Positions 1 through 17,028 are shown, counted from the stretch's first letter. The stretch: DNA of 64,000 nt from an uncultured virus (IMG/VR IMGVR_UViG_3300043777_000372) (IMGVR_UViG_3300043777_000372); one strand, 5' to 3'. Made by a program: numbers and translations. Notes: generated from the letters alone by a model not told the origin.

Positions 1-2
1 CG

Positions 3-329
3 TCACAGGCGCAGCTCAACGATGCTCGGGCGGTTTTCCAGAATGCACGAACGAAAGCGAGCGCCGCCAGGGCCGCCGCCTGGGACGCCGCCTGGGAAGC
101 CGCCGGGTACGCCGCCTGGGACGCCGCCTGGGAAGCCGCCGGGTACGCCGCCAGGGCCGTCGCCGGGGACGCCGCCTGGGACGCCGCCTGGGAAGCCGCC
201 TGGGCCGCCGCCGGGGCCGCCGCCTGGGACGCCGCCTGGGCCGCCGCCCGCGATCGGCTCACGCCCACCGTCGAGGCGATGCAGGCCAGCGCGAAGCAGC
301 TCGTCGTGCGCATGTGCGCCGAGAAGTAG
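3..329 (+). CDS. 5'-truncated phage protein with AAWDAA/AAWEAA repeats
   Basis: Frame 3 is open from the window edge and reads ...[20 protein letters not shown]...LVVRMCAEK*; the Ala/Trp repeat is a common phage protein type. Confidence 0.7.
63..248 (+). repeat. 12-nt tandem repeat (GCCGCCNGGGNC-like, about 15 copies)
   Basis: Visible directly; encodes the AAW(D/E/A) repeats. Confidence 0.85.
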
Positions 330-359
330 ACTCCCATCCGTGCGCGCGAGGAGAAAACG

Positions 360-956
360 ATGAAGTACACGACTGTCATGGCCGACCCGCCTTGGCCCTA
401 CGCGACTCCCGGCAAGGGTCCGTTGGCGGCGGGCACACCGTCGAACCCCGAGGCGTGGAAGGGGAACCTGACCGGGAGCAACATGCGGACGCGCTACCCG
501 CCGCTGGCGATGGACAAGATCAAGTCGATGCCGGTCGCTGACTTCGTTGACGCAAACGCTCATCTGTATCTCTGGACTACGAATGGGTTCATCTGCGAGG
601 CGCACGACGTCGCACGAGCTTGGGGCTTTCGACCAATCACGCTCATCACTTGGACGAAAGTGATGAAGGACGATCCCGAGACCGCCTCGATGAAGACCGG
701 CTACTACTTCCGTGGCGCTACCGAGCACGTTGTGTTCGCGGTGCGAGGGTCTCTCAAGCTCACGTCCACGCGAGGGGTGAGCACCGCCTTCCTGCATCCT
801 CGGACGCCGCACTCAGTCAAGCCGGACGCGTTCTACTCGCTCATCGAGGAGTGCAGTCCCGGCCCTTACCTGGAGCTGTTCGCCCGACGTACTCGTCCAG
901 GGTGGTCGGTGTGGGGCAATCAGGTCGAGTCGGATATCGCCCTGAAAGTCGGCTGA
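360..956 (+). CDS. MT-A70 family adenine methyltransferase
   Basis: ADPPW catalytic motif, [34 protein letters not shown]. Confidence 0.92.
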
Positions 957-993
957 AGGACAAACCCAGAAATTTGCGCGCGAGGAGAAAACG

Positions 994-1260
994 ATGACCG
1001 ACAGCAAGGCTCCGCACCTGTGGGAGATGGACCACCCATACTACTGTAGTGAGGGGAACTACTTCAACAACGAGTGCCACGCCGAGTTCGCCACGTGGTC
1101 CGACTTCTTGAAGGTCTTCGAGTTCTTGTGCGAACTGTGCGCCTCAAGTCGCATAGGGTCTGCACACTCCTACCCAAGCCAGTACAGCAATGCCGACCTC
1201 GCGCAGTCGATCGGGTACGCGACGAACGAGATCCTCAAGGCCATTCGGGCCGAGAAGTAA
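994..1260 (+). CDS. hypothetical phage protein
   Basis: GAGGAG RBS after the junction motif; HLWEMDHPYYCSEGNY. Confidence 0.75.
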   Translation: MTDSKAPHLWEMDHPYYCSEGNYFNNECHAEFATWSDFLKVFEFLCELCASSRIGSAHSYPSQYSNADLAQSIGYATNEILKAIRAEK

Positions 1261-1288
1261 GTACCCATAAATGCGCGCGAGGTGATTC

Positions 1289-1504
1289 ATGGACGAGATC
1301 ACGATCAAGCTGACGACCAACCACCTACCTGGGTTCCGGTGTCCCCACTGCGGGGGCTTGGGTCGCATGGCTGACGGCAGTTTCAGCATCGGACCCGACG
1401 AGGTGCGCATCAAGGCGGCGACCCAGTGCGGGGTCTGCATGGGCAAGGGACGCGTCCGGTGCGTGCCCATCACCGACGAAGAAGACCGGGCGGCACAAAC
1501 ATGA
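1289..1504 (+). CDS. small Zn-finger protein (CxxCxGxG x2)
   Basis: CPHCGGLG ... CGVCMGKG; GAGGTG RBS. Confidence 0.7.
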   Translation: MDEITIKLTTNHLPGFRCPHCGGLGRMADGSFSIGPDEVRIKAATQCGVCMGKGRVRCVPITDEEDRAAQT

Positions 1505-1536
1505 AAATGCGCGCGGGACAAGAGAGGACGGGGATC

Positions 1537-1755
1537 ATGAGCGGAACAGAAGGACTCGGACGCGGAGGAGAGCAGGCAGGTTCCGACTTCGCCGCGCCTG
1601 CGGACCACAAGCCGTACAGCACGGCTCCATGTGCGAAGTGCGGGGCGTACAAGGTGAAGTGCAGCCTGGAGGACGAGTACGACCACGGTACCTACTACGA
1701 CATCACATGCGAGGCGTGTGGCGACCACTACCGGACAGATGGGCCGGACTCGTGA
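1537..1755 (+). CDS. small Zn-ribbon protein
   Basis: CAKC ... CEAC; start chosen after the junction motif and RBS. Confidence 0.65.
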   Translation: MSGTEGLGRGGEQAGSDFAAPADHKPYSTAPCAKCGAYKVKCSLEDEYDHGTYYDITCEACGDHYRTDGPDS

Positions 1756-1793
1756 GCGCCACCGTGCGCGCGATTCATGGGAGGTAGCAGGAG

Positions 1794-2045
1794 ATGCGGT
1801 GCAAGTGGTGTGGAGTCGAGAGAGGCGCGCCGGCCGTAGGGGCGCATGCGTGCGACCCGGCGAACGTGCGGTACCTGGCTCTCTACGACGCGGCCGAGCT
1901 TGCGAAGTCGATGCGCGTTCATGGAGTCGCGAAACGATTGGGCGCCATAGCTAGCCTGGCTCGGAGCGGAGAGGTATGCGGGTGCGCGAACGGTGGATTC
2001 CATGCGCACACGTGCTCCGCGGGGAACTCGAAAGCCGGCGCGTGA
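1794..2045 (+). CDS. small Cys-rich hypothetical protein
   Basis: AGGAG RBS; CKWC. Confidence 0.6.
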   Translation: MRCKWCGVERGAPAVGAHACDPANVRYLALYDAAELAKSMRVHGVAKRLGAIASLARSGEVCGCANGGFHAHTCSAGNSKAGA

Positions 2046-2087
2046 CCATGCGCGCTTTGGAAGCCTGGACGGAGGAAGGGTGACGAG

Positions 2088-2324
2088 ATGCAAGAGCCCA
2101 TCTGCCATTGCGTGAGAGAGGAAGACGAGGGCGACTGGGATGCCGACTACACGCGCATCCGCGCCGTGTGTGGGGCCGAGTGCCTACTCGACCCCGAAGG
2201 TGAGCCGATACCGGCCGACTTCGACTTCGTGCTCGCTCCTGACCCCAAAGGCTACACCGATTGCTGGCCGTGCCTGGAGAAACTTGCCGAGCCTCTTGCG
2301 CTCGCCCGGACGGTGCGCGCATGA
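2088..2324 (+). CDS. small Cys-rich hypothetical protein
   Basis: GGAGGAAGG upstream; CHC...C...CWPC. Confidence 0.6.
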   Translation: MQEPICHCVREEDEGDWDADYTRIRAVCGAECLLDPEGEPIPADFDFVLAPDPKGYTDCWPCLEKLAEPLALARTVRA

Positions 2325-2530
2325 CCAGTCGCTCGACGGAGACGAAGAACGCTCGCAAGCTGGAGAGGCTCTACCGGACGAAGGAGCACGGCACGAAGCA
2401 CACGACCGTGCTCAACCTGATCCGAGATCACGGACTCGATGGTGCAATGGCGCAGCTCGAAGCGTGGGGCACGGTGGCAGAGACGACATGCGGCGTCTGC
2501 CACTACATTCACTGCGTGTGCCCGAGGTAG
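2321..2530 (+). CDS. hypothetical protein
   Basis: ATGA overlap with the previous gene; C-terminal CGVCHYIHCVC. Confidence 0.6.
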   Translation: MTSRSTETKNARKLERLYRTKEHGTKHTTVLNLIRDHGLDGAMAQLEAWGTVAETTCGVCHYIHCVCPR

Positions 2531-2566
2531 AATCGTGCGCGCGATTGAAGCCTGGACGAAGGAACC

Positions 2567-2716
2567 ATGAGCTACCCGTGTCCGAGGTGCGGAATCGACC
2601 TCGTAGAGAACCCAGACGACGAGGTGAACGACTACGAGCTTGAAGGTGACCAGGTGCGCCACACCATCAAGCGCTGTCGTGAGATTGAGGAGAACACCAC
2701 GCCCGAGGGGATGTGA
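2567..2716 (+). CDS. small hypothetical protein (MSYPCPRCG...), not in the ORF track
   Basis: AAGGA RBS after the junction motif; 49 codons. Confidence 0.6.
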   Translation: MSYPCPRCGIDLVENPDDEVNDYELEGDQVRHTIKRCREIEENTTPEGM

Positions 2717-2751
2717 TGTGCGTGCGCGCGGGACAAGAGGAGCCGGAGGCG

Positions 2752-2949
2752 ATGACGGACAATGAACTAGCTGTGAACTTCGTGCGCGCAAGAGGGTTGC
2801 TCCGCACACTCGTCGCGTGGGTGAACGCGCTGAGCCCCGACCGTGTGAGCACGTACCAGGCCTGCCCGCTCTGTAAGCACGCGCGCGACAACTGCGCATC
2901 GTACTGTCGCGGTCCTAGCGTCCGACAGTTTCTTGCAGAGACGGAGTGA
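2752..2949 (+). CDS. hypothetical protein
   Basis: GGAGG RBS; CPLC. Confidence 0.6.
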   Translation: MTDNELAVNFVRARGLLRTLVAWVNALSPDRVSTYQACPLCKHARDNCASYCRGPSVRQFLAETE

Positions 2950-3000
2950 CCGTGCGCGCGAAGGAGGGCTAGATGCGGGCGAAAGGCGAAAGACGAAGAC

Positions 3001-3165
3001 GTGATCTGCGATAGGTGCAAGCGTGACCCAGGCGCCACGGAGGACGGTGTGGCGTACTGCTACCACTGCTCGCACGAGTGTACGTTCACGATGGCAGAAC
3101 TGCGCGAGCCGGACGTGAGTGACTTCATGCCGACACGAGACGCGTTGTGGCGAGGACTGCGGTAG
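3001..3165 (+). CDS. small Zn-ribbon protein (start uncertain)
   Basis: VICDRC...YCYHC; the RBS-led ATG at 2973 is out of frame by one base. Confidence 0.45.
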   Translation: MICDRCKRDPGATEDGVAYCYHCSHECTFTMAELREPDVSDFMPTRDALWRGLR

Positions 3166-3187
3166 CGTGCGCGCGATTGGAGACGGG

Positions 3188-3397
3188 ATGATTCGAGACT
3201 ACCACCCCAACCTCTTCGTAGCCGATGAGGCGGCATGTCAGTGCCTCAACGAGATCTACTCCGCGAGTGCCCACCTTGCTTGGGGTCGAGAGGGGTCGGT
3301 CTCGTGGCCCTCTGGCTCGCTCCGTAGCTTCGGCGTGCTTTTGGAGTGGCACGAGTACGTGAGGCGGTGCGGACTCGAAGAGTTGCCGTTGCGATGA
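3188..3397 (+). CDS. hypothetical protein
   Basis: GGAG RBS after the junction motif. Confidence 0.55.
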   Translation: MIRDYHPNLFVADEAACQCLNEIYSASAHLAWGREGSVSWPSGSLRSFGVLLEWHEYVRRCGLEELPLR

Positions 3398-3420
3398 CCG
3401 TGCGCGCTAAGGAGGAGAAG

Positions 3421-3675
3421 ATGAGCAAGACGTGTTCAATCTGCGGAGGAGCTATCCCGAATGGCGAGAAGTCAGTCGGTCATACGGCATTGTGCGCTCA
3501 GGTCGTGAGTGACTCCAAGACCGATGCAATCGACGACGCGTGGGGCATCATCGCGAACGCCTTCGGTGGGAATTGGGACCAGGCTTCACCTGAGTGGCGT
3601 CAGGCCGCTGAGAGGTGGAGAGACAAGCACATCGCTTGCCGGTCGGCGTCAGCTACACCAAAGTCCGAAGGCTAG
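3421..3675 (+). CDS. hypothetical phage protein
   Basis: AAGGAGG RBS; DAWGIIANAFGGNWDQASPEWRQAAERWRD. Confidence 0.75.
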   Translation: MSKTCSICGGAIPNGEKSVGHTALCAQVVSDSKTDAIDDAWGIIANAFGGNWDQASPEWRQAAERWRDKHIACRSASATPKSEG

Positions 3676-3811
3676 ACCGTGCGCGCGATGAAAGGGTGGC
3701 CGAAGTGGCTCAGCTAGGATTGCAACAGGCATCGCCCACGCCCCCTCACCGTTCCTCGTCCGCGTACTCGCGCGCCTGTCTCGGGTTGAGCGCGAGCTGC
3801 GCGAGGCGCGC

Positions 3812-4078
3812 GTGATCCAAGAGTGGGCCGACTACACAGCAAACGATGGTCTCACCGGCGCAGAGCTCGTAATGGCATTCGAAGACGAGAAGCAAAAGGT
3901 GCTGAGCTCGTGCGTTTTATGGTTTGCGGAAACCGACCGTGCGATTCGATGTGGCGAACTCGCGTGGGGCGATATGAGCGAAGCGGAGGTGCACCTGTAC
4001 CGGATGGTCCGCGCGTGGCGTGTGAAGGTCGAAGGTGGACGTAGCGCGGTTCGAAAGATCGTCGACGGCAAGCGATGA
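3812..4078 (+). CDS. hypothetical protein
   Basis: Coupled ORF, ATGA overlap with the next gene. Confidence 0.6.
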   Translation: MIQEWADYTANDGLTGAELVMAFEDEKQKVLSSCVLWFAETDRAIRCGELAWGDMSEAEVHLYRMVRAWRVKVEGGRSAVRKIVDGKR

Positions 4079-4299
4079 GCGCGATCAAAGATCTCTGCCG
4101 TGAGTTCCCCGAACGAGGGACGAAGATCATCCACGACGCGCTCGTCGCGCATTCGTGGAACTACGAGCGGACCGCCGAGGCATTCGCCCTCGACCCGACG
4201 CACTTCCGCCGGATCGTCGAGGAGCTCGGGTGCAAGGACCGATTCGCCGTCGAGCAGGACGCGTTCCGGAAGCGATTCCGGGACCCATTCGGAAAATGA
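4075..4299 (+). CDS. Fis-type HTH protein
   Basis: IHDALVAHSWNYERTAEAFALDPTHFRRIVEELG fits the Fis/HTH_8 pattern. Confidence 0.7.
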   Translation: MSAIKDLCREFPERGTKIIHDALVAHSWNYERTAEAFALDPTHFRRIVEELGCKDRFAVEQDAFRKRFRDPFGK

Positions 4300-4314
4300 G
4301 GTCGACCTCACTTT
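4293..4314. promoter_or_regulatory. 22-bp palindrome copy 1 (1 mismatch)
   Basis: AAAATGAGGTCGACCTCACTTT; supplies the stop of 4075..4299. Confidence 0.85.
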
Positions 4315-4318
4315 CACG

Positions 4319-4348
4319 GTGGACCCATTAGGGCGCGTGCGGCATGAT
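4319..4348 (+). promoter_or_regulatory. GTGGACCCATTAGGGC operator-like site plus GCGGCATGAT -10 element
   Basis: Matches sites at 5007 and 25253; CATGAT lies 7 nt before ATG 4356. Confidence 0.6.
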
Positions 4349-4355
4349 GTAGAGC

Positions 4356-4616
4356 ATGCCGAAGGGAATCGCGAGCAAGGTGAGTCGATTGGCGCGGGTC
4401 GCTCCCGAGGATGCGATCGCGATGATCGAGGATGCCTACGAGCGCGCGGGCGGGTTCCCCGACGGCGCCGCTCGACTTCTCGGCTACACAACGCGGCGTG
4501 GACGCGATGCCCTTCACCGGTTGAATCGAAAGCTCGGCATCGTGCATCGGGTGCGGCGCGTGACGGGGCATTACCCCGGGTGGCTCGGTGGAAGCTGGCA
4601 ACAGGTGGGACGGTGA
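4356..4616 (+). CDS. Fis-type HTH protein
   Basis: IEDAYERAGGFPDGAARLLG...LHRLNRKLGI. Confidence 0.7.
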   Translation: MPKGIASKVSRLARVAPEDAIAMIEDAYERAGGFPDGAARLLGYTTRRGRDALHRLNRKLGIVHRVRRVTGHYPGWLGGSWQQVGR

Positions 4617-4957
4617 GCGAGGAGGCGAAAGATCTGCAGGCGATTCGGCGGACGAACCCGCCCGAGTACGTGCGACTCATCACCGCGGCGTTCGAGGAGG
4701 CGGATGGGAAGATCGCCGACGCAGCGGAGAAGCTCGGGGTGAGCAAGACGGCGCTGAAGCGGTGGCTGCGCGAGGATTCCGCGTTGCGGTCCGTGCGCCG
4801 GCGGCGCACGCCCGGGCGTCCGTGCACGAAGGTCGACCCGAAGGATCAGGCGAAGATCGTCGCGTTGCGCCGGCGCGGCGTTCCTCGTCGCGAGGTAGCC
4901 GCGAAGTTCAACGTGGGGGAGCGGTACGTGACGAAGCTCGTCGAACGAGCCGGATAA
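4613..4957 (+). CDS. double-HTH DNA-binding protein
   Basis: GKIADAAEKLGVSKTALKRWL and GVPRREVAAKFNVGERYVTKLV; GTGA overlap. Confidence 0.75.
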   Translation: MSEEAKDLQAIRRTNPPEYVRLITAAFEEADGKIADAAEKLGVSKTALKRWLREDSALRSVRRRRTPGRPCTKVDPKDQAKIVALRRRGVPRREVAAKFNVGERYVTKLVERAG

Positions 4958-4970
4958 TTCCGGGGTTTTC

Positions 4971-5030
4971 GAGAATCGACACCATACGGGCGAAAAAGGG
5001 TTGCACGTGGACCTATTAGGGCCCATGTTA
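4971..5030 (+). promoter_or_regulatory. sigma70-like early promoter with operator in the spacer
   Basis: A-tract, TTGCAC (5001), 17-nt spacer, CATGTT; homologous to 25218-25276. Confidence 0.65.
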
Positions 5031-5080
5031 TCTATCGACGGCGACGACGGGTCGCCAAACACCACCCCTCAAAACAGGAG

Positions 5081-5374
5081 ATGAGGACCATGCGAAAGAA
5101 TCTGCAAGACCTGACGCCAGCGGACGTGCAAAGCGCGTACGTGGGCCGCGTGCACACGTGTTGCTGCGGATGCGCGGGCACTCACTACGATTCGAGCGAG
5201 CCGGGATTCGGCGATTCCGACCGGGCGATGCTGTTGAAGATCTTGCGCACGGTCCAGGCCAACGAGGAGAACCTGAACAGCGACGGCCCCCGGGTGTGGT
5301 CCGCGAATGTCGGCAAGAAGGTGTTCATCGTGTACCTCCGCGAGGACGCGGATGCGCCGGCGGTGGCGTCGTGA
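5081..5374 (+). CDS. hypothetical phage protein
   Basis: CAGGAG RBS; YVGRVHTCCCGCAGTH. Confidence 0.75.
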   Translation: MRTMRKNLQDLTPADVQSAYVGRVHTCCCGCAGTHYDSSEPGFGDSDRAMLLKILRTVQANEENLNSDGPRVWSANVGKKVFIVYLREDADAPAVAS

Positions 5375-7635
5375 ACTGGTCCGACCGGCAGCAAGCTGTG
5401 TTCGCCGACGTTGCCACCGGCACCGGGCACACAATGGTCAATGCCGTTGCAGGCGGGGGCAAGACCTCGACCATTCTCGAATCGATGAAGTCGGTCCCGA
5501 AGGGGGCGTCGGTCCTGTTCGTCGCGTTCAACAAGTCGATCGCGATCGAGCTCGCCAAACGCGCCCCCGCGGGCGTCACCGTGTCGACGTTGCACTCGCT
5601 CGGATTGCGAGCCTGCACGCAGGCCTTGAACCGATCGCGTGTGGACGGCGATAAGGCCAAGGACATCGCTCGAAAGATCACGGGCGCCGAGGACCACTTC
5701 GAGAGGCGCGAGTGGTGCGCGTCGGTCATCAAGGCCACGTCGCTCGCAAAGTCGTGCCTCGCCGTCACCGACGACGACATCGATGCCGTGATCGATCAGT
5801 ACGGGATCAATCCCCCGGAGAAGGAGTCCGAGCGGGTGGCGTTCATCGCCGACGTCCAGGCTGTGCTCAAGGCGTGCCGGGAGATCACCGAGGAGGTCGA
5901 CTTCGACGACATGGTGTGGTTGCCGATTGTGCTCGACTTGGCGGTCCCGCAGTACGACTACGTGTTCGTCGACGAAACGCAGGATCTGAACGCCAGCCAG
6001 ATCGCGCTCGTCCTCAAAGCCGTGAAGCCGAACGGGAACGGCGGCGCCGGTGGACGCGTCATCGCCGTCGGTGACCCTCGGCAGTGCCACCCGGCGGGAA
6101 CCATGGTTTCGATCACAGGAGGAGCGCGGAAGCCGATCGAGCAGGTCGTACCGGGAGACTCTGTCGTGAGCTACCACGACTGCTTCCGCGGAATCGCTTT
6201 GCAGGGGCGGCGAGTTCTCCGGACGGCGCACCGCCCGTATGTCGGCGAGATGCTGAGGCTCCGAGCAGAGGACGGCGAGTCGGTTCGCGTCACGCCGAAT
6301 CACAAGATCCCGACTCGGCTACGCGCGCGAGGGGCAGCTCGGTGGGCTCTCTACCTCATGGAGAGCGGGAGCACGTCGCGGATCGGGTGCTGCAAGTTGA
6401 TGTACAAGCAGGGCTTTGGCCCGGCGATGCGTGCCCGGCAGGAGCGCGCGGATCGGCTTTGGGTGCTCGAAACCTTTCTGGACGAGGATGAGGCGCGGAT
6501 CGCGGAGACTGTAGCGGCGACGACGTTCGGGCTGCCGGAGGGGATCTTCTACGAGAAGGGCGCGCTCAAGAAGCGCCTCTTCGAAGCGCTCGGCGACAAC
6601 CGCGCGAAGCGGGACGCGTGCCTGCGAGCCTACCATCGAGATCCGGAGTTCCCTCTCTACACGAAGGCGGACGGAAAGCACCTGAGCCGGTACGTCTACG
6701 TTACGCAGGCGTGCAATCTAATCGAAGGCGTGAACGAGGTTCGGACATTCGATGGGACGCGTGACGGTGGAGGATGGCACGTCGTCGAGATCTCGCGTGT
6801 GGTGGAGGCGTGTACCGTTTATTCCCTATCGGTCGAACCGACAGAGGGCGGGCATCGCCTGTACGTGGCGGACAACGTCCTCGTGCACAACTGCATTTAC
6901 AGTTTTCGTGGTGCATTACCGGACGCGTTCGACAAGGTCCGCACCGCCCTCGGGGCGAAGGTGTTGCCATTGTCGGTCACCTACCGGTGCGCACGTGCGG
7001 TCGTCCGGGAAGCGGCGACCCTCGTGCCCCACCTCGAGCACGCCCCGGACGCGGAGGAGGGCGCCGTCGCCATGGTGAGCGAAGCGCGGATGCTCGCCGA
7101 GGCGAAGGCGGGTGACTTCGTCCTGTCCCGAATCAACGCGCCGCTCCTCAAGCTTTGCCTGGCGTTCCTTCGCAACGGGCAGCGCGCGGCGATTCAGGGG
7201 CGCGACGTCGGCACGAAGCTCGCCGCGGTCGTACGCCGGGCGAAGACGGACGACGTCGACGTGATGCTCGAGTATGTCGCGAAGTGGGCGAGCCTGGAGA
7301 TCGCGCGCCTGGAGAAGCGCGGCCGCGACGCCACAGGCGTCGAGGACATGCGCGAGTGCGTCTTCGCTCTATCCGAGGGGGAGACGAACGTGTCGGCGGT
7401 CACCGCGAAGATCGAGCGCCTGTTCGCCGACGGCGACGAGACGACCCGCATCACCCTGTCGTCGACCCACAAGGCCAAAGGCATGGAGCGCGACCGGGTG
7501 TGGATGCTTCACACGACGTATCTCCGACGCCGGCGCGGCGCAAAGGGCCCCAGTATCGAGGAGCAGAACCTTGCGTACGTCGCCATGACTCGCGCGCGGC
7601 GGGAGCTGTTCCTCGTCGGGAGCATCGAGTCGTGA
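5371..7635 (+). CDS. UvrD/Rep-family SF1 helicase with intein
   Basis: AVAGGGKT, FVDETQD, VGDPRQ|intein|CIYSFRGA, YRC, STHKAKGME, YVAMTRAR. Confidence 0.93.
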   Translation: MNWSDRQQAVFADVATGTGHTMVNAVAGGGKTSTILESMKSVPKGASVLFVAFNKSIAIELAKRAPAGVTVSTLHSLGLRACTQALNRSRVDGDKAKDIARKITGAEDHFERREWCASVIKATSLAKSCLAVTDDDIDAVIDQYGINPPEKESERVAFIADVQAVLKACREITEEVDFDDMVWLPIVLDLAVPQYDYVFVDETQDLNASQIALVLKAVKPNGNGGAGGRVIAVGDPRQCHPAGTMVSITGGARKPIEQVVPGDSVVSYHDCFRGIALQGRRVLRTAHRPYVGEMLRLRAEDGESVRVTPNHKIPTRLRARGAARWALYLMESGSTSRIGCCKLMYKQGFGPAMRARQERADRLWVLETFLDEDEARIAETVAATTFGLPEGIFYEKGALKKRLFEALGDNRAKRDACLRAYHRDPEFPLYTKADGKHLSRYVYVTQACNLIEGVNEVRTFDGTRDGGGWHVVEISRVVEACTVYSLSVEPTEGGHRLYVADNVLVHNCIYSFRGALPDAFDKVRTALGAKVLPLSVTYRCARAVVREAATLVPHLEHAPDAEEGAVAMVSEARMLAEAKAGDFVLSRINAPLLKLCLAFLRNGQRAAIQGRDVGTKLAAVVRRAKTDDVDVMLEYVAKWASLEIARLEKRGRDATGVEDMRECVFALSEGETNVSAVTAKIERLFADGDETTRITLSSTHKAKGMERDRVWMLHTTYLRRRRGAKGPSIEEQNLAYVAMTRARRELFLVGSIES
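6085..6891 (+). mobile_element. intein (269 aa) in the helicase
   Basis: Starts CHPAGT, block B VTPNHK, ends VLVHN followed by Cys; splits motif III GDxxQ/xIYxFRGA. Confidence 0.9.
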
Positions 7636-8006
7636 GCATGTTCGTCGAGGTCCCCGCGGGCGCGCTTCATGGCGCGCTCACGGGTGCGGGGTTCGCACTG
7701 GATGCGCACGAGCGCCGCGAGGAGGTGTTCTTCCGCGCGCACGCCAAAGACCCGCGGTACGCGGTACGGGTCTACACGTCGTTGTCGTTGGGAGCGCGTG
7801 GCGCCCGTGGGTGCGGTCGGGATGCGATCCGGGTCGTGGTCACATTCGACGGTCCGAACGGACGGCGGGGCGTCTGGAAGGGCAAGAGGGTGTTCCGAGC
7901 GGGCACCGTCGATGCGGTCGTTGCGCGGATGCTGGAGCGGATGCGCGACGGGTACGCGCACATCAATGGGATCTTGAAGCACCCGAGCTACAGGAGGGCA
8001 TCGTGA
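7632..8006 (+). CDS. hypothetical protein
   Basis: Coupled ORF; VRVYTSL...RGCGRDAIRV. Confidence 0.7.
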   Translation: MSMFVEVPAGALHGALTGAGFALDAHERREEVFFRAHAKDPRYAVRVYTSLSLGARGARGCGRDAIRVVVTFDGPNGRRGVWKGKRVFRAGTVDAVVARMLERMRDGYAHINGILKHPSYRRAS

Positions 8007-8191
8007 AGAACATGAAGCACGTGGACATGATCGCGATCTACGAGAAGGCGCTGCGGAAGATTGCTGCGTACAACGACACGGCGGCCAAACCGGACGCGCT
8101 CGATTACCCTGGTGTCGCGGGGCTCGATGAACCCGATTCAGCGCTCGTTGCACGCAAAGCGCTCAAGGAAACGGGTGCGAATCCGCGTTAG
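8003..8191 (+). CDS. hypothetical protein
   Basis: GGAGG RBS, GTGA overlap. Confidence 0.6.
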   Translation: MKNMKHVDMIAIYEKALRKIAAYNDTAAKPDALDYPGVAGLDEPDSALVARKALKETGANPR

Positions 8192-8290
8192 GAAGTTCAC
8201 CGATTCCCATCGGGCAGTGCTTCGGAGTAGGACGGATGGATCCCTTCGGCGGTGGCCCACGCCGTCGAAGGACCGAGGAGGTTTCCCACC

Positions 8291-8956
8291 ATGAGCCACG
8301 TGTTGGCAGCGTCGTTGCGCGTGCTGCATTCCAAGACGATCACGTTCCAACAGTTTTACAGACTCACGAAGCCCGAGTGGTCGCGCATGGCCACCTCGCT
8401 CCACAAGCAGTGGAAGCTCCCGCCGGCGGTGAGCGCCGACGACGTCGAACAAGAGATGCTCAAGGCCGCGTGGCGGGCGCTTCCCCGGTGGAACCCGCGC
8501 AAGGCGCCCCTCGTGCGGTTCGTCGTGTTCGAGGCCCACGACAAGGCCGTGAAGTGGATTCACAAGCAGCGGGGCTGCAACCTTCACACGCGGAAGGGTC
8601 CGAGCCAGTACGCGTGGTGCATCGCGACGCTCGCGCGCGACGGCGAGGACGGTGGCAGCCGCGTCCTCGAGAATGCCACCGACGGCGCGCCGTCCAGCGA
8701 GCGGGTCATCGACTACGAGCGGTTTCTCGACGAGCTCCCCGACGCGGCGAGCTCGGAGGCGGGGCGGGTCGCCCTCCAGCGGTTCATCGAGCATGCCGGC
8801 GACGAGGAGAAAGCCGCGCGCGCGATGCACGCCGACAAGCGGCATCGGTTCCTTTTCAGCATCGAGAGCCCAGCGCACGCGAAGCAGATCATCAGGCAAG
8901 AGTTACGGAGCGTGCGTCGCACGCTCCTCGACGAGGACACCACCGAAGGAGGATGA
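8291..8956 (+). CDS. sigma-70 region 2-like transcription factor
   Basis: DDVEQEMLKAAWRALPRWNPRKAPLVRFVVFEAHDKAVKWIHKQR; GAGGAGG RBS. Confidence 0.65.
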   Translation: MSHVLAASLRVLHSKTITFQQFYRLTKPEWSRMATSLHKQWKLPPAVSADDVEQEMLKAAWRALPRWNPRKAPLVRFVVFEAHDKAVKWIHKQRGCNLHTRKGPSQYAWCIATLARDGEDGGSRVLENATDGAPSSERVIDYERFLDELPDAASSEAGRVALQRFIEHAGDEEKAARAMHADKRHRFLFSIESPAHAKQIIRQELRSVRRTLLDEDTTEGG

Positions 8957-10128
8957 GGACCATGAGCAAGAGCGACGTCGAATCGGAGAGCGCGCGAAGC
9001 AATGCTAACGGAGCTGCGAGCGCGCCGGACAGCGACGAGGAGGTGTGCGGGGTGAAGATCGACCTCGTCGACAAAGGCCGGCTTATCCGGTGCGCGAAGG
9101 AGCACAAGATCGCGATCCCGAAGGGGGCGGCGTTGCCTGCGCTCGTCGAGGCGGTGGCGGTGCACTTCACGAAGGAGCGCAAGGCCGGCAAGGAGATGCT
9201 CCAGTGCGACCGGTGCGGCGGCGTCGCTCCCGAGTCGATCGAGGTCTGCCCGTTCTGCGGTGAAGTCAGTGGCGAGACGGAGGAGAGCTCGGTCATCGGC
9301 GGTGTGTCGGTGGACGCGCCCAGCGAGCGGGTACGCGCGGCGAAGACCGAGACGGCGCTCGCGACGGTGGACCGGTCGACGCTCACGACGACGGCGCCGG
9401 TCGTGGTCGTTCCGAAGAAGCACGTGCCGCAGACCGAGCATCAGCTCGAGGTCGTCATCGGGCGCATTCAAGAACTGAAGCGCGACTTCTCCCGGAACAC
9501 GTGGGAGATCGGCCAGCAGGTCATCCTCCTCACGAAAGAGACCAAGGATCAGCCGGCGCTGTGGCGCATGCGGAAGGAGGACGACGGGGTCACGCCGAAG
9601 TACAAGGACTTCAAGGCGTTCCTCCGCGCCGAGGTCGGCTTCTCGTACCGCATGGCCGAGAACTGCAAGTACCTCGTCGAGAACTACACGATGGAAAAGC
9701 TCCAGCTCGTGTCGACGAGCAAGATGGAGATCGTTCTCAACGCGCCACCGGGGGAACGGAAGAAGCTCATCCGCGGTGCGGCGACGATGCCGGTGCGCCA
9801 GCTGCGAGAGAAGGTCCGCGACTTGAACATCGCGGCGGGCAAGCACGACAAGCGACGAGCAGCGCGGCAGGAACGGGCGAAGAAGGAGCTCGCTGCGAAG
9901 GACGACAAGAAGGGCGTCGTGACGTTCACTCTGCCCGGGAAGAAGGGGAAGATCTGGCTGTACCGGGAGCACGCTGATGCCAAGGGCAAGTTCATCAAGG
10001 CGAACAGCCTCACGGACAACTACGGGTGGATCGAGGGGGTGAACGGTGTGCGCCTGGTCCTCAAGGTCGTGAAGGACGTGAACGGGATGCGCGTGCTGTA
10101 CGAGGCGCGGCGCGAAGAGGAAGGGTGA
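8953..10128 (+). CDS. hypothetical protein with Zn ribbon and basic C-terminus
   Basis: CDRC...CPFC; YKDFKAFLRAEVGFSYRMA is possibly HTH-like. Confidence 0.75.
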   Translation: MRTMSKSDVESESARSNANGAASAPDSDEEVCGVKIDLVDKGRLIRCAKEHKIAIPKGAALPALVEAVAVHFTKERKAGKEMLQCDRCGGVAPESIEVCPFCGEVSGETEESSVIGGVSVDAPSERVRAAKTETALATVDRSTLTTTAPVVVVPKKHVPQTEHQLEVVIGRIQELKRDFSRNTWEIGQQVILLTKETKDQPALWRMRKEDDGVTPKYKDFKAFLRAEVGFSYRMAENCKYLVENYTMEKLQLVSTSKMEIVLNAPPGERKKLIRGAATMPVRQLREKVRDLNIAAGKHDKRRAARQERAKKELAAKDDKKGVVTFTLPGKKGKIWLYREHADAKGKFIKANSLTDNYGWIEGVNGVRLVLKVVKDVNGMRVLYEARREEEG

Positions 10129-10131
10129 GCC

Positions 10132-10944
10132 TTGGAATGCACCGATGATGCGGCGGGCGTCATCGTCGGGGAACGGCGATGGGCAATCGTCCTAGGGGAC
10201 GCGCGGCTCGAGCTCCCGAAGTTCGGCTCGCGCGTCGTCGACCACGTCATCTGCGATCCGCCTTACTCGGCGCACGTGCATGCGAACGTGCGGTCGGGAT
10301 CGCAGAAGGGCAACGAGAAGCGCGATGCGACGTCGCGCAACGCGGTGAGCCGGGGAGTCGAGCTCGGCTTCGAACGACTCGACCGGGCGACGCGTCTAAT
10401 GCTCGCGCAGCAGAGCGCGCGCATCGCGAAACGGTGGTGCATGTTCTTCACCGACGCGGAGAGCGTCGGACGGTGGCGTCGCGCGATTCTCGATGCAGGG
10501 CTCGAATACGTGCGCACGGGAGCATGGGTGCGTTTGAATCCGGCGCCGCAGTTCTCGGGCGACCGACCCGCCGCGGGCTTCGATGCCGTCGTCATCGGGC
10601 ATCCGAAGGGGAGGAAGCGCTGGAACGGGGGCGGGCTGCCGGCGGTGTGGAGTCACGCGGTGGTCATGAACCGCGGCAAGACGGTCCGGGTGCACGCGAC
10701 CGAGAAGCCCGTCTCGCTCATGATCGATCTCGTGGCGATGTTCACGGATCCGCGCGACATCGTGATCGATCCGATGTGCGGCAGCGGTAGCACGGGAGTC
10801 GCTTGCTTGAACATCGGTCGGCGGTTCATCGGCATCGAGCGCGATGCGAAGTCGGCGGCGATTGCGCGCGAGCGGTTGGACGCCGCGGCGAGGATGACGA
10901 CGACGGACGCCGCAGGTCGAGGACAAGTCGCGTTGTTCGGTTGA
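10132..10944 (+). CDS. N4/N6 DNA methyltransferase (beta class)
   Basis: ICDPPY ... HATEKP ... DPMCGSGSTG ... FIGIE. Confidence 0.9.
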   Translation: MECTDDAAGVIVGERRWAIVLGDARLELPKFGSRVVDHVICDPPYSAHVHANVRSGSQKGNEKRDATSRNAVSRGVELGFERLDRATRLMLAQQSARIAKRWCMFFTDAESVGRWRRAILDAGLEYVRTGAWVRLNPAPQFSGDRPAAGFDAVVIGHPKGRKRWNGGGLPAVWSHAVVMNRGKTVRVHATEKPVSLMIDLVAMFTDPRDIVIDPMCGSGSTGVACLNIGRRFIGIERDAKSAAIARERLDAAARMTTTDAAGRGQVALFG

Positions 10945-10959
10945 GGTCGACCTCATTTT
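10938..10959. promoter_or_regulatory. palindrome copy 2 (14-bp core)
   Basis: TGAGGTCGACCTCA; supplies the MTase stop. Confidence 0.75.
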
Positions 10960-10981
10960 CGTTCGCGGCATGATGATCGGC

Positions 10982-11182
10982 ATGCCCAGCACGCCTCGCC
11001 ACGATCGGCTCATCCCCTACGTCAGCGAACGCGATCGTCGGATCGCCGAATCGTACCGCAAGGGCGAGAAGACCCCCGCCGAGCTCGCCCTCGAGCACGG
11101 GGTGTCCCGCCGGATGATCTGGAAGATCACCGACCGGGTGCGGAGCGTCGAGGCGATCGAGCGGCTCAAGAAAACCGCATGA
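10982..11182 (+). CDS. Mor/C-like HTH transcription regulator
   Basis: RDRRIAESYRKGEKTPAELALEHGVSRRMIWKI; leaderless start 7 nt after CATGAT. Confidence 0.65.
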   Translation: MPSTPRHDRLIPYVSERDRRIAESYRKGEKTPAELALEHGVSRRMIWKITDRVRSVEAIERLKKTA

Positions 11183-13539: not shown

Positions 13540-13784
13540 AGTGGATCTTCGAGGTGAGCACGCAGAAACTCGTCGACGAGATCGGCGGTCCGCAACGCGT
13601 GACGCTCGTAGGGCAGAACGGATCGCAGCACCGTCGCGACGAGCCCAGTTTCATTACGGTCGAAATGGACGGATGGGACGGGTACCTGTCCCCCTCGATC
13701 TTCGTCGATGAGCGAATCGTCGACGACTTCCCTCCGCGACGTCCTCGGAAGCGATTCCGGGTGACCATCGAGAGCATCGATTGA
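13536..13784 (+). CDS. hypothetical protein
   Basis: ATGA-coupled ORF. Confidence 0.6.
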   Translation: MKWIFEVSTQKLVDEIGGPQRVTLVGQNGSQHRRDEPSFITVEMDGWDGYLSPSIFVDERIVDDFPPRRPRKRFRVTIESID

Positions 13785-14092
13785 TGAGCGATCCGTCGCA
13801 GCACGAGGGCGACCTCAGGCTCCTGAACGCGCTTCTCGCGTCCGATCTCTCCGATCTCGAAGCGGAAGCGTTCGAGGACATGGCCGATCGTATCGCGGGC
13901 GACTACGGCGGGGTCCTGACGCCGCGGCAGCGTGCATGGGCGAACAACGTCGCCGACCGGGTCGACGTTGAACCGAGCGAAGGGCCCGAAGCGATCAAGG
14001 ACACGCGGTTCACCGACGGGCCTATCCCGCGCGGGCGCGAAGTGCCGCTCCTCGTGAAGGACCGCCCGTTGAGGCCACCCGGACGAAAGTGA
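13784..14092 (+). CDS. hypothetical protein
   Basis: TGATG-coupled ORF; LTPRQRAWA. Confidence 0.65.
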   Translation: MSDPSQHEGDLRLLNALLASDLSDLEAEAFEDMADRIAGDYGGVLTPRQRAWANNVADRVDVEPSEGPEAIKDTRFTDGPIPRGREVPLLVKDRPLRPPGRK

Positions 14093-14107
14093 GGTCGACC
14101 TCACTTT
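14086..14107. promoter_or_regulatory. palindrome copy 3 (perfect)
   Basis: Exact 22-mer; supplies the stop of the upstream gene. Confidence 0.9.
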
Positions 14108-14128
14108 TACGGCGGCATCATCGGGGGC

Positions 14129-15445
14129 ATGAGTGACAACCAGACCCCCGCGCTTCCCCCGCTCCGGAAGCGGAGCGAAGTAGGCCGGAAACCTCAGCAA
14201 CAGACGATCGCGGAAGTGGTGGCGAATCCACCTGCGCCACCGGTCGAAGTTGAACCGGCGAAGCCCAACGCCGTCGGTGCTGATGGGATGGAGAAGATCT
14301 CCGAGTTCGTCGGCGCGGTGCGAAAGGCGGGCTTTGACCTTTCGCTCATCGTTGCCGCGCAGTGGGGCGTTGAGATCCGCAACGCGATCCGCACGTGGCT
14401 CGTCACGAAGAACCCCGCGACCATCCCGGCGCAGCTGGTCACGATGAAAGCAAAGGCGTCCGACGCGACCGCAGCGCCTTTGCCCGCGCGTGTCGGCGCC
14501 GAGGTGAACCTCGACAACCTGCGCGCGAGGCTCAATCGATTCGGGATCCATCCGAGCATCGCCGAGATGCAGGAGTGGAGCCTCGTCGCGCTCGGTGTCG
14601 CGACCACGTGGGTCGACGGCGACGGGAAGCCCGACGAACTCGTGCCATGGCTCGCGAAGTACGCGGCGACACAGCTCCCCGCGGGCGTCCGCGTGGCAAA
14701 CGATGACGAGGCCTCGAAGATCTTGAAGGACGCGGGTGAGGAGCCTTCGAAACGCGCGAAGAAGCCGATCCCTCCGCCCGATCCCGATGTTGTGCGACAG
14801 GTCCCGCGCGAAGGAAACGAGAGCGGATCGAAAACGGACTTCCCCGGGACGACGCGTGCACCCGCACCGAGTGCGGCGGTTCCGTCGCCCCCGCCGGCGA
14901 TGAGGAAGGAAGACCTTCCCGAAGCGTGGGGCGGGCCCCCGGAGCACCCCAAACCCCCGCATGTGGTCCCGGTTGTGTCGGAATCTCCCGACTTCGACCG
15001 GCTCGTTTCGACCATCTTGGCCGAGATGCAGATTGACCAGGAGTACGACGAGCTCGAGGCGGCGCTCGAGATCGGCGAGGACCGGCGCGATTACACGACG
15101 CTGAACTCCGAGGTCGACAAGGCCGACCGTCGCGCGTGGCGCGCGAACGGGCTGTGGGCGCAGGCGCGGCTCGTGTACGAGCGGATGAAGATCGATCAGG
15201 AGGAAGTCGACGCCGACCTCTGGCGGCAAGCGCTCACCGCACTCGAGGAGGACGAGAAGAAACCGAAGACGCGCATCGAGGACGTGAAGGCGAAGATCGC
15301 CGAGATGTTTCCCGACGAGTTCCGAGGGGGGAAGATTCGGCTGAAGACGGCCGAGATCGCCGTCGATCGGTGCGAGTCGTTCAGCAAGCGCTGGTCCGAG
15401 CGTGCGCAGGCATTGCGGGTCATGCTCCAGGCTTGCAGGAAATAG
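14129..15445 (+). CDS. hypothetical protein with helical C-terminus, possibly a UvsY-like recombination mediator
   Basis: Pro-rich linker and coiled C-terminus; lies before SSB and RecA (function inferred). Confidence 0.6.
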   Translation: MSDNQTPALPPLRKRSEVGRKPQQQTIAEVVANPPAPPVEVEPAKPNAVGADGMEKISEFVGAVRKAGFDLSLIVAAQWGVEIRNAIRTWLVTKNPATIPAQLVTMKAKASDATAAPLPARVGAEVNLDNLRARLNRFGIHPSIAEMQEWSLVALGVATTWVDGDGKPDELVPWLAKYAATQLPAGVRVANDDEASKILKDAGEEPSKRAKKPIPPPDPDVVRQVPREGNESGSKTDFPGTTRAPAPSAAVPSPPPAMRKEDLPEAWGGPPEHPKPPHVVPVVSESPDFDRLVSTILAEMQIDQEYDELEAALEIGEDRRDYTTLNSEVDKADRRAWRANGLWAQARLVYERMKIDQEEVDADLWRQALTALEEDEKKPKTRIEDVKAKIAEMFPDEFRGGKIRLKTAEIAVDRCESFSKRWSERAQALRVMLQACRK

Positions 15446-15492
15446 GCGGCATCATCGGGGGATGCGACTTCGAATCAACGAAAGGCGGCGCG

Positions 15493-17025: not shown

Positions 17026-17028
17026 CCT

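Follow-up and report, generated by a model that had tools for sequence, protein, structure and literature searches.

The heptamer TGCGCGC, hereafter the box, lies on the coding strand at 13 of 13 consecutive gene boundaries between positions 329 and 3690 of the window, the whole stretch of 64,000 nucleotides analysed. The source is an uncultured soil phage with a genome of about 97 kb. The array (positions 329 to 3700) contains 12 co-oriented genes, an MT-A70 methylase and 11 small unrelated genes, in one apparent transcription unit; the spacers measure 22 to 51 nt, and one gene pair overlaps instead. Our preferred interpretation, drawn from sequence comparison and tentative, is that the box is a linker resembling the promoter-early stem-loop (PeSL), at which genes would be turned over by short-homology recombination and which a role in cis would keep invariant. 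The array would then be a variable accessory ("hyperplastic") early region of the phage. The features, all on the + strand, are as follows.

3–329, +: 3' portion of the Trp/Ala-repeat gene preceding the array (full protein P0147, 242 aa, start upstream of the window)
341–347, +: box 1, opens the 23-nt direct repeat 341–363
360–956, +: MT-A70 family DNA methyltransferase, 23-nt repeat on both sides (Pfam PF05063, 3.9e-26; phrog_359, 3.9e-53)
975–981, +: box 2, opens the second 23-nt repeat copy, 975–997
994–1260, +: 88-aa protein, 4 Cys (phrog_7880, unknown function, 1.7e-13)
1272–1278, +: box 3, left flank 1249–1259 equal to 318–328 left of box 1
1289–1504, +: 71-aa protein, two CxxCxGxG motifs, likeness to the DnaJ zinc finger by eye
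1508–1514, +: box 4, opens the 17-nt direct repeat 1508–1524
1537–1755, +: 72-aa Cys-rich protein
1765–1771, +: box 5
1794–2045, +: 83-aa Cys-rich protein
2049–2055, +: box 6, then the 18-nt repeat 2060–2077
2088–2324, +: 78-aa Cys-rich protein, last residues encoded by box 7
2314–2320, +: box 7, overlaps the ATGA stop/start overlap and abuts the ATG, no spacer
2321–2530, +: 69-aa protein (homologue in locus L154, 58% identity over 50 aa)
2536–2542, +: box 8, then the second 18-nt repeat copy, 2547–2564 (one mismatch)
2567–2716, +: 49-aa protein, 3 Cys
2723–2729, +: box 9, opens the second 17-nt repeat copy, 2723–2739
2752–2949, +: 65-aa protein, internal lower-scoring TGCGCGC at 2783–2789
2953–2959, +: box 10, strong ribosome site downstream, then a mini-ORF of 13 codons, 2973–3014
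3001–3165, +: 54-aa Cys-rich protein, GTG start
3168–3174, +: box 11
3188–3397, +: 69-aa protein
3401–3407, +: box 12
3421–3675, +: 84-aa protein, final array gene
3680–3686, +: box 13, top matrix score

The box array and its cargo

The + strand copies of TGCGCGC begin at 341, 975, 1272, 1508, 1765, 2049, 2314, 2536, 2723, 2783, 2953, 3168, 3401 and 3680. These 3.4 kb contain 14 of them, compared with 20 in the other 60 kb of the window. Over the whole window and both strands the heptamer is not over-represented (58 copies versus 48.06 ± 7.25 in shuffles); the signal is therefore a local cluster. A 7-mer cluster scan counted 13 spaced copies in 4 kb, where 1.51 were expected (Poisson P = 8e-9). 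The copy at 2783, within gene 2752–2949, is the sole local copy off the boundaries; the remaining 13 of 14 are at boundaries, 12 of these in spacers.

The box is placed between the stop codon and the ribosome-binding site, and its consensus is A-c-C-G-TGCGCGC-G-A. The 7-nt core is invariant and the flanks drift, with a bias to A at −4 (10/13), C at −2 (9/13), G at −1 (9/13), G at +7 (10/13), and A at +8 (9/13). The box is 3' of the preceding gene's stop codon in 12 of 13 junctions, at a distance of 2–6 nt in eight and 9–18 nt in four. This distance is tighter than that between box and start codon, which is 10–41 nt in 11 junctions and 0–41 nt overall. When 90,358 bases of the phage were scanned with a matrix, all 13 boxes were in the top 16 + strand scores, and the only comparable score elsewhere in these 90 kb was at 32738, inside the terminase gene. 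The sequence-only reading had reported about 13 consecutive boundaries with the motif between stop and ribosome-binding site, and an end of the pattern after 3690. Both statements were confirmed, the latter by the finding of no high-scoring box in any spacer beyond 3690 in the 90 kb examined. Box 13 is followed only by a 9-codon mini-ORF (3688–3717) and then by about 90 nt without a called gene; the earlier mini-ORF at 2973–3014 overlaps the GTG start of gene 3001–3165. Immediately 3' of the array, positions 4075–4957 encode three small helix-turn-helix proteins, one with Pfam support (4640–4957) and the other two recognized by eye. The rest of the genome has another recurring element instead, a 22-bp palindrome with 20 copies of its core.

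The cargo had been described as short, unrelated and often Cys-rich, plus an MT-A70 methylase, and this description held. No mutual relationship between the array genes was detectable (best pairwise blastp E-value 0.025). Paired CxxC/CxC motifs were found by eye in 6 of the 11 small proteins, and each of the 11 contains 3–6 Cys. The sequence-only reading had also named the cargo a candidate pool of anti-defence genes; searches against Pfam, PHROGs, and NCBIfam spoke neither for nor against this, being blank except for the methylase and a single match to a PHROG without assigned function. The only array gene with a Pfam family is 360–956 (MT-A70, 3.9e-26). The 71-aa protein (1289–1504) has relatives at 90% identity or more, including P0245. 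Mean GC of the cargo is 0.619 and GC3 is 0.766, versus 0.662 (sd 0.02) and 0.846 in 21 core genes. When the proteins of the region were compared to 210 related loci, only 3 of 16 had any match, and among the small cargo proteins a homologue turned up for the product of 2321–2530 alone. The lower GC and the near-absence of homologues make the cargo look accessory.

Some junctions share identity beyond the box. The three pairs given in the sequence-only reading (341/975, 1508/2723, and about 2060/2547) proved exact, with lengths of 23, 17, and 18 nt, the last with one mismatch. The 23-nt direct repeat (341–363 and 975–997) flanks the methylase alone, and the 17-nt repeat (1508–1524 and 2723–2739) flanks five genes; nested inside the latter pair, the 18-nt repeat (2060–2077 and 2547–2564, one mismatch) flanks two genes. 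The junction at box 1 is a mosaic: its right side is common to box 2, and its left side (GCCGAGAAGTA) is common to box 3. Flank alignments scored 16, 15.5, and 11, compared to shuffle maxima of 12 for right flanks and 10 for left flanks; the right flank of the 17-nt pair scored 10, below the 99% null of 10.5.

Related phages and comparable arrays

Contigs from four other soil runs were identical to the window across the array, with gene order unchanged. No deletion or excision joints within 329–3700 were present in these contigs, which is weak evidence since contigs drop rare variants. Single-letter variants in the array cluster only at 1626–1740, in gene 1537–1755; three more variants are in repeats at 176–194.

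The helicase P0002, the closest homologue of the window helicase among the matches listed, was used as query. In the closest loci obtained (L086 and L246), the helicase is 61–63% identical to P0002; a primase occupies the place of the array, and no box array is present. Locus L171 contains a homologue of the Trp-rich gene, with 76% DNA identity over window positions 62–348; downstream of this gene are small Cys genes whose junctions overlap and lack the box.

Junction elements between small genes do occur in more distant loci. One group of low-GC relatives (helicase 37–39% identical) has its own lineage-specific elements, as do the single loci L157 (43%) and L348. In L157 and at several low-GC junctions these elements adjoin terminator-like hairpins and resemble promoter or operator modules. 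For eight genome pairs of the low-GC group we determined how many homology-block ends fall within 30 bp of a junction element. The fractions were 10/10, 11/14, 8/9, 7/13, 4/6, 3/4, 1/4, and 1/2, where about 0.14 was expected. L222 contains one extra cassette of 438 bp relative to L217, and L228, L235, L220, and L232 keep anchor cassettes while the intervening cassettes differ. These genome alignments show cassette gain, loss, and replacement ending at the junction elements of the low-GC group. Part of the breakpoint signal could stem simply from conserved elements situated between diverged genes. The comparable arrays are distant, and their elements are longer and partly palindromic; we regard them as analogies and not as homologues of the window's box array.

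Possible roles of the box

In the preferred reading, the box and the longer leaders common to some junctions would provide small patches of identity on which the phage's own general recombination (RecA/UvsX-like and RuvC-like genes) could act. The window contains a RecA-like gene at 17029–19248 and a RuvC-like gene at 22567–23136. Whole genes would be inserted, deleted, or replaced at these patches, and their neighbours would be left intact. The box would also have a cis role in the expression of a polycistronic early transcript, suggested by a 7-nt core that is invariant while the flanks drift; a site read on RNA or by a monomeric DNA-binding protein is favoured. For this phage, we infer both turnover at the box and its regulatory role from sequence patterns. 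A gene-shuffling array had also been proposed in the sequence-only reading, and that part gains indirect support from the nested direct repeats, the mosaic junction, the low-GC cargo nearly free of homologues, and the distant comparable arrays. The integron-like part is not supported: there are no attC-like hairpins, and no site-specific recombinase domain was found in 110 ORFs covering about 90 of about 97 kb. Against turnover, the 7-nt invariant core, and identities of 12–23 nt at best, offer little length for homologous exchange of the RecA type, and local duplication or gene conversion, instead of insertion, could account for the shared leaders. The lack of a box array in L086, L246, and L171 and, more weakly, the unchanged order in the contigs of four runs also count against the reading, and the failure to find a promoter, terminator, hairpin, or Rfam family counts against its regulatory half.

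Somewhat less likely, in our assessment, is a purely cis-regulatory box that plays no part in turnover, with one factor controlling the whole block through a site before each early cistron. The factor could be a DNA roadblock or repressor, as with stoperators, or the box could be an mRNA binding or cleavage site, and the leaders would come from local duplication. Known mRNA sites of this kind are those of T4 RegA and RegB and the RNase III sites between T7 early genes. The sequence-only reading's second proposal, a repeated RNA-processing or translation signal, likewise stays a candidate. The invariant core amid drifting flanks fits this explanation, as does the placement on the sense strand only, from stop to ribosome site, in 13/13 junctions. 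The limitation of the box to one block, with the 22-bp palindrome (20 core copies) elsewhere, the three helix-turn-helix proteins right after the array (one with Pfam support), and the identical gene order in four other soil runs point in the same direction. However, a cognate factor for the box was not identified, and with 0–41 nt between box and start, not every ribosome site can be occluded. The nested direct repeats, the mosaic junction, and the lower cargo GC are left unexplained. Folding of the 13 junctions gave no hairpin common to them (RNA-fold z-scores −1.79 to +1.82), and the junction spacers had no Rfam match. Only one of nine inverted-repeat pairs in 250–3800 spans a junction, the one at 2314. 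Promoters and terminators were likewise absent, as detailed below.

A dedicated gene-capture system, integron-like but free of attC hairpins, might operate in this virulent-looking soil phage with the box as its crossover core. From the sequence we judge this improbable as a whole. Such a system would use the 7-nt core together with a recombinase or a helper of the RecA machinery, encoded in the other approximately 7 kb or among the unannotated genes. If true, the junction elements of the related group and the two loci would be lineage-specific variants of a single, general mechanism by which phages acquire small accessory genes. Still less probable is the stricter version in which the box is the core site of integron-like site-specific recombination and the recombinase lies outside the sequence seen. 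Its appeal is the cassette-like layout, with one gene per unit, one direction, and a box near each 3' end, together with the 23-nt repeat on both sides of a single gene; of the approximately 97-kb genome, about 7 kb lies outside the sequence scanned. However, the junctions contain neither attC-like imperfect inverted repeats nor shared hairpins, and excision joints were not seen in the contigs of four runs. No integrase, resolvase, transposase, or other site-specific recombinase domain was found in 110 ORFs (82 in the window and 28 in a 26-kb extension) covering about 90 of about 97 kb, with DNA upstream of the window outside the scan and a threshold of E ≤ 0.001, relaxed to 0.01 for 18 ORFs of the array region.

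There is little to recommend the box as part of a promoter that makes each small gene its own transcription unit, as in PeSLs. The promoter- or operator-like modules next to terminator-like hairpins in L157 and several low-GC junctions speak for it; however, positions 1–5400 contained no + strand terminators and no sigma-70-type promoters (0 versus 0.6 in shuffles, in a scan that assumes the sigma-70 type, which may not be the host's). No conserved second element was found at a fixed distance from the box, nor was a phage RNA polymerase or sigma factor found in the genes annotated. The box ends 10–12 nt before the ATG in three junctions and abuts it in one, so that a transcript starting from such a box would be without a ribosome site. 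A DNA-level role, as a Chi-like signal against host exonuclease near a genome end, a Z-DNA-prone alternating CG tract, or a GCGCGC restriction decoy or target, is equally doubtful: all copies have a single orientation, the array is no more than about 7–11 kb from an end of the longest contig, and the CGTGCGCGCG stretch of the box, read from the sequence, is perfectly alternating pyrimidine-purine, but none of these roles needs a box in each spacer and hardly any within coding sequence, the boundaries account for 13 of 14 local copies (12 in spacers, a small part of the 3.4 kb), and TGCGCGC is not avoided elsewhere (58 versus 48 expected).

Likeness to known systems

The junction spacers have no shared hairpin, sigma-70 promoter, terminator, or Rfam match, and no integrase was found in the approximately 90 of 97 kb scanned; by the features that define integrons, PeSLs, stoperator sets, and SAS, the array therefore belongs to none of them. 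PeSLs are mobile regulatory cassettes of T4-type phages (PMC2839356; PMC4122927), with about 100 bp conserved that contain a sigma-70-like promoter and a terminator stem-loop (PMC2839356). PeSL-mediated shuffling and mini-circles in T4-type phages provide a precedent (PMC2839356). The likeness consists in a conserved element that occupies the gap from stop to ATG where small ORFan genes adjoin in a variable early region, in direct repeats of the element that flank single genes or blocks, as found here, and in turnover proposed to proceed via the phage's own homologous recombination without an integrase. In the low-GC arrays the likeness extends to gene insertion, deletion, and replacement with ends at the element. 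In contrast to the approximately 100 bp given for PeSLs, the box array conserves 7–13 nt (17–23 nt in some pairs). A promoter, stem-loop, or terminator was not found in it, and its genes appear to share one transcript.

In integron cassette arrays and CALINs (integrase-less attC clusters), the attC site is much longer than 7 nt. The box array is similar in having a short unrelated gene per unit, co-oriented genes, and a recurring site near the gene 3' end. It differs in that it is phage-borne, has a 7-nt core and no attC hairpin, and is accompanied by no IntI or attI/Pc in the sequence scanned.

Stoperators are spread genome-wide, and the immunity repressor of temperate phages binds them. Those of Cluster A mycobacteriophages (PMC9283540) resemble the box: both are short, asymmetric, and present in many copies, occupy narrow intergenic gaps, and keep a single orientation with respect to transcription. 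The boxes, however, are confined to 3.4 kb and not genome-wide, and no repressor or integrase was identified in the sequence scanned.

The start-associated sequence of Cluster K mycobacteriophages (SAS/ESAS) is a 13-bp motif that includes the Shine-Dalgarno core, 3–7 bp from the start codon (PMC3203893). Both the SAS and the box are asymmetric motifs, in one orientation before unrelated non-structural genes; however, the box and the ribosome site are distinct elements, and the box lies 0–41 nt from the start, with a tighter spacing to the preceding stop. The junction of L348 is closer to the SAS than the window's box is.

Placement and context of the TGCGCGC box

The word TGCGCGC is present in 14 copies on the + strand between 341 and 3686, versus 20 in the other 60 kb of the window. 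Its count over the whole window is not raised (58 versus 48.06 +/- 7.25); the signal therefore lies in a local cluster. Scanning for such clusters detected 13 spaced copies in 4 kb where 1.51 were expected, and the box lies at 13 of 13 successive gene boundaries (the remaining copy, at 2783, is intragenic), as the sequence-only reading had held for about 13 consecutive boundaries. These placement statistics exclude a chance origin of the cluster.

The consensus over the 13 boxes is A(10/13)-n-C(9/13)-G(9/13)-TGCGCGC-G(10/13)-A(9/13). Its position is tied more tightly to the preceding stop codon (gaps of 2-6 nt at eight junctions and 9-18 nt at four) than to the following start (0-41 nt); at junction 2314, the box overlaps an ATGA stop/start overlap. 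When 90,358 bases were scored with a position matrix derived from the 13 boxes, all 13 were among the top 16 + strand scores, and the sole comparable score elsewhere was at 32738, within the terminase gene. The box is asymmetric, with an invariant 5' T and a preferred 3' G, and TGCGCGCA is found in only one of the 13 copies; this asymmetry argues against a symmetric dimer site.

The 13 junctions have no common hairpin (fold z-scores from -1.79 to +1.82); five fold worse than their own shuffles by more than 1 sd, and one of the nine inverted-repeat pairs in the region, that at 2314, spans a junction. The lack of attC hairpins claimed from the sequence is thus confirmed. A scan of 1-5400 returned neither sigma-70-type promoters nor + strand terminators, Rfam gave no match at E <= 1 in 1-6000, and no integrase, resolvase, RNA polymerase, or clear sigma factor was recognized among the 82 window ORFs and 28 extension ORFs. 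Only 10-12 nt separate the box from the ATG in three junctions, too few for a transcript begun at the box to include the ribosome site. On these grounds, the array reads as one transcription unit of translated cistrons that have individual Shine-Dalgarno sequences.

Two further candidates were rejected. A sigma-54 -24/-12 pattern, compared by eye with the junction alignment, does not fit. The box core and its flanks are self-complementary when G-U pairs are included; however, the minimum-energy fold of 300-3760 pairs only the boxes at 1765/2536 and 3168/3401, and the others pair with assorted GC-rich stretches, so that long-range pairing between boxes has no support.

Two mini-ORFs adjoin boxes. 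The first (2973-3014, 13 codons) has a strong ribosome site directly behind a box and overlaps, in another frame, the GTG start of gene 3001-3165. The second (3688-3717, nine codons) abuts the last box, has no gene downstream, and may be left over from a cassette that has been lost.

Shared junction flanks, cargo, and soil-run contigs

The longer identities that had been noticed at three pairs of junctions were recovered. Junctions 341 and 975 have 23 nt in common, through the ribosome site to ATGA, and form a direct repeat around the methylase gene. Junctions 1508 and 2723 share 17 nt and enclose five genes; nested in this block, two genes are enclosed by an 18-nt repeat (2060 and 2547) that has one mismatch. 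Flank similarity was above every shuffled control for three of the four pairs (16, 15.5, and 11 versus maxima of 12 and 10), and the right flank of 1508/2723 scored 10, just below the 99% null of 10.5. Junction 341 is a mosaic: on the left it matches junction 1272 in GCCGAGAAGTA, which ends the upstream gene, and on the right it matches junction 975. Direct repeats around a gene would match the expected trace of an inserted circle with one junction copy; equally, they could be the substrate for deletion of the enclosed gene.

The array genes are poorer in G+C than 21 core genes ( 0.619 versus 0.662, sd 0.02; GC3 0.766 versus 0.846). Paralogy of the cargo proteins was rejected, with a best pairwise E-value of only 0.025; no kinship is detectable among genes that had been called unrelated. 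A search of 210 related loci gave homologues for only three of the 16 region proteins (the methylase and the products of genes 2321-2530 and 4356-4616). Pfam, PHROGs, and NCBIfam were blank as to cargo function except for the methylase and phrog_7880.

Contigs from four other soil metagenome runs matched the window, with zero differences over the pieces bridging boxes and in the same order. These contigs are of the same strain, and contigs hide rare forms; they contain no joints at boxes or elsewhere within 329-3700, some bins of runs X7 and X8 being without cover. Single-letter variants inside the array are confined to a cluster at 1626-1740, and three more lie in repeats at 176-194.

The phage, its relatives, and comparable junction arrays

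The 64-kb window has a G+C content of 65%, and nearly every gene is on the + strand. Recognized genes include:

5374-7635: UvrD-type helicase with a Hint/intein insert
10970-11182: Mor-like activator
17029-19248: RecA-like protein with a LAGLIDADG insert
Window, replication and modification: family B DNA polymerase, RuvC-like resolvase, Mom-like modification enzyme, two DNA methylases
Window, packaging and head: large terminase, portal, major head protein

The intein is absent from many helicase homologues of about 480 aa. Given its LAGLIDADG domain, the RecA-like gene probably holds an intein too.

A blastn search of window 1-8000 against 50,697 phage records gave no match to cultured relatives, and tblastn with the polymerase and terminase gave no identity reaching 60% (listed matches, 23-26%). 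Three IMG/VR records (G001, G002, and G003) are fragments of the same phage, 100% or 99.99% identical; one of them runs 26,358 bases past the window end, and window 1-19187 is in none of the three. About 90 kb of the phage genome was examined; the helicase protein is recorded from a contig of 97,425 bases, whose remaining ~7 kb fall outside this scope. Phage DNA is present in 11 soil metagenome runs, with no RNA run among those listed. Myxococcota isolate genomes contain helicase relatives at 36-38% identity, which we take as a clue to the type of host, not as a finding.

The closest listed helicase homologues (P0002 at 77%, P0005 and P0013 at 71%) are on contigs of 71-100 kb, and a near-identical copy of gene 1289-1504, encoding P0245 at 90% identity or more, is on a 25-kb contig. 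No further TGCGCGC array was found among the matches listed for the helicase query in IMG/VR, metagenome, and genome collections, nor among those listed for P0245 and for P0147, the full Trp-rich protein preceding the array. Scanning IMG/VR for three copies of GTGCGCGC with gaps of 200-230 nt gave 19 loci; the densest six were inspected and rejected (five tandem or coding repeats and one scattered cluster), and the other 13 were assessed from copy counts alone. K-mer cluster scans covered 23 chosen helicase loci plus most loci from L086 on, and most of their matches were coding repeats, tandem repeats, or tRNA genes.

In the nearest retrieved loci, L086 and L246, the helicase is 61-63% identical to the query P0002; both keep the genes at 4075 and 4356 with the palindrome described below between them, and have a primase in the array's place. 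The gene preceding the array (window 1-329 and upstream) encodes a protein with Ala/Trp-rich repeats, from a large unannotated family. At E <= 1e-5 the family counts 2,461 proteins, and Xanthobacter, Sphingobium, and Burkholderia genomes encode some of them; in many of the phage contigs returned, mostly shorter than 50 kb, at most a few hundred bases separate the gene from a contig end. In locus L171, the Trp-rich gene (76% DNA identity) precedes small Cys-rich genes, the junctions of which overlap and lack the box. In runs X5 and X8, contigs with a depth of about 3 connect sequence that stops at 7945 with sequence that begins at 270, through 28 other letters. Their source may be a relative whose Trp-rich gene follows the helicase, as it does in L171, or the GC-rich repeats may have produced an artefact.

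The k-mer survey of most fetched loci found three other junction systems:

Low-GC helicase relatives: twelve loci (L215, L216, L217, L220, L222, L228, L232, L235, L242, L243, L256, L272), e.g., L235:3393-7970
L157:6768-12700: array in a locus with helicase identity of 43%
L348:9192-12300: array of eleven small genes plus a DNA methylase

Helicase identity is 37-39% in the ten low-GC loci compared, and one locus is in an Altibacter MAG. Small genes lying 2-6.6 kb upstream of the helicase in the low-GC loci, roughly where the window's array sits, are separated by 6-12 copies of CAAAG-N6-ACCATATGGT-N6-CTTTG; in several junctions a terminator-like hairpin precedes the element. Between genomes, an element lay no more than 30 bp from the end of a homology block in 10/10, 11/14, 8/9, 7/13, 4/6, 3/4, 1/4, and 1/2 cases, with an expected fraction of about 0.14, and some of these ends may merely reflect conserved elements between diverged genes. 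Cassettes gained, lost, or replaced between these genomes have their limits at the elements: L222 has one additional 438-bp cassette relative to L217, and L228, L235, L220, and L232 have anchor cassettes in common with differing cassettes between. Apparent reordering is partly paralogy, because one cassette family occurs twice per genome. As judged from its sequence, the low-GC array is a PeSL-like system (promoter-early stem-loop) outside the T4 group.

In L157, the palindrome CCGAGCAATTYTGCTC precedes seven of 11 GAGGCTA junctions, with an ATG after; a hairpin adjoins five of these seven, and six of the seven lie upstream of or up to the helicase start, with one beyond. L348 is a different kind of phage that has the Trp-rich gene in common at 35% identity; the DNA methylase is the second gene of its array, as in the window. 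Nine of the 11 CCAGGAG junctions in L348 include CCAGGAGTCGGACGC, and TGA-CCAGGAGTCGGACGC-ATGA is the reading in most cases. The junction is mostly translated as the last six residues of the upstream protein, DQESDA, and the ribosome site and start of the next gene lie inside the tail encoding them.

Readings of the box and a second repeat family

Many functions of host takeover and counter-defence are encoded among the small early genes of phages; how such genes are gained and lost is, to our knowledge, poorly understood in phages other than the T4 group. Short lineage-specific junction elements recur between small early genes of these phages and, in the low-GC group, the sole group with enough genomes to compare, they mark sites of gene gain and loss. 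The window's box is the most reduced junction element among those found. Because junction elements recur and mark turnover in one group, we tentatively favor, with slightly less than even confidence, the reading of the box as a recombination linker with a cis role. Such a PeSL-like box would permit gene turnover via recombination at short homologies, carried out by the RecA-like and RuvC-like machinery of the phage itself, and the cis role, exerted at the DNA or the RNA level, would keep its 7-nt core invariant.

A purely regulatory box, for which the invariant core and the sense-strand placement between stop codon and ribosome site would speak, and in which the shared junction flanks would stem from local duplication, is possible but on the unlikely side. 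A dedicated site-specific system would suit the direct repeats, and is improbable beside the negative searches for an integrase and a resolvase in the roughly 90 kb examined and for a common hairpin at the junctions. Very improbable are a promoter, for which three junctions leave no room, and some other DNA-level role.

The linker reading likens the box to PeSLs (PMC2839356) in gene turnover; the box shares with them the place between small ORFan genes of a variable region, and has neither their promoter nor their terminator stem-loop. The testable defining features of integrons, of the stoperators of Cluster A mycobacteriophages, and of start-associated sequences (SAS) are absent. The box is therefore placed in none of these classes, and is a variant of this general kind. 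The array adds a minimal GC-rich junction linker, with a 7-nt invariant core and without promoter or hairpin. Lineage-specific junction elements exist in other phages, upstream of the helicase in one group of its relatives and in L157, and an unrelated phage group (L348) has one adjoining the same Trp-rich gene. If turnover does occur at linkers, then linker-joined cassette arrays would be general in phage accessory regions and no T4 peculiarity, and the linkers could serve to mark out and retrieve accessory genes in metagenomic data.

A second repeat, unrelated to the box, is a near-perfect 22-bp palindrome, AAAGTGAGGTCGACCTCACTTT, at 4294-4314 and 17 further sites. Its core, GAGGTCGACCTC, is found at 20 window sites from 4298 to 61633, spread over the replication and structural regions and never within the box array. 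Where inspected (4294, 19212, and 32570), the palindrome is at gene boundaries, and one copy overlaps a gene end. In L246, the core is unchanged and the arms carry symmetric changes (CCTTGAGGTCGACCTCAAGG), as would suit a hairpin or a dimer-binding site; the palindrome may be a bidirectional terminator or a middle/late promoter-operator.

Three consecutive small-protein genes lie right after the array, at 4075-4957:

4075-4299: similar to helix-turn-helix by eye; no Pfam match
4356-4616: similar to helix-turn-helix by eye; no Pfam match
4640-4957: Fis-type/homeodomain-like helix-turn-helix (Pfam HTH_23, HTH_8)

These proteins and the Mor-like activator (10970-11182) are candidate readers of either repeat family. 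In three of the four soil runs (X5, X7, and X8), one contig each leaves the window at 4262 and continues with the same unrelated 30 letters, and therefore would represent a variant or relative whose sequence departs from the window within the end of gene 4075-4299, shortly ahead of the first palindrome.
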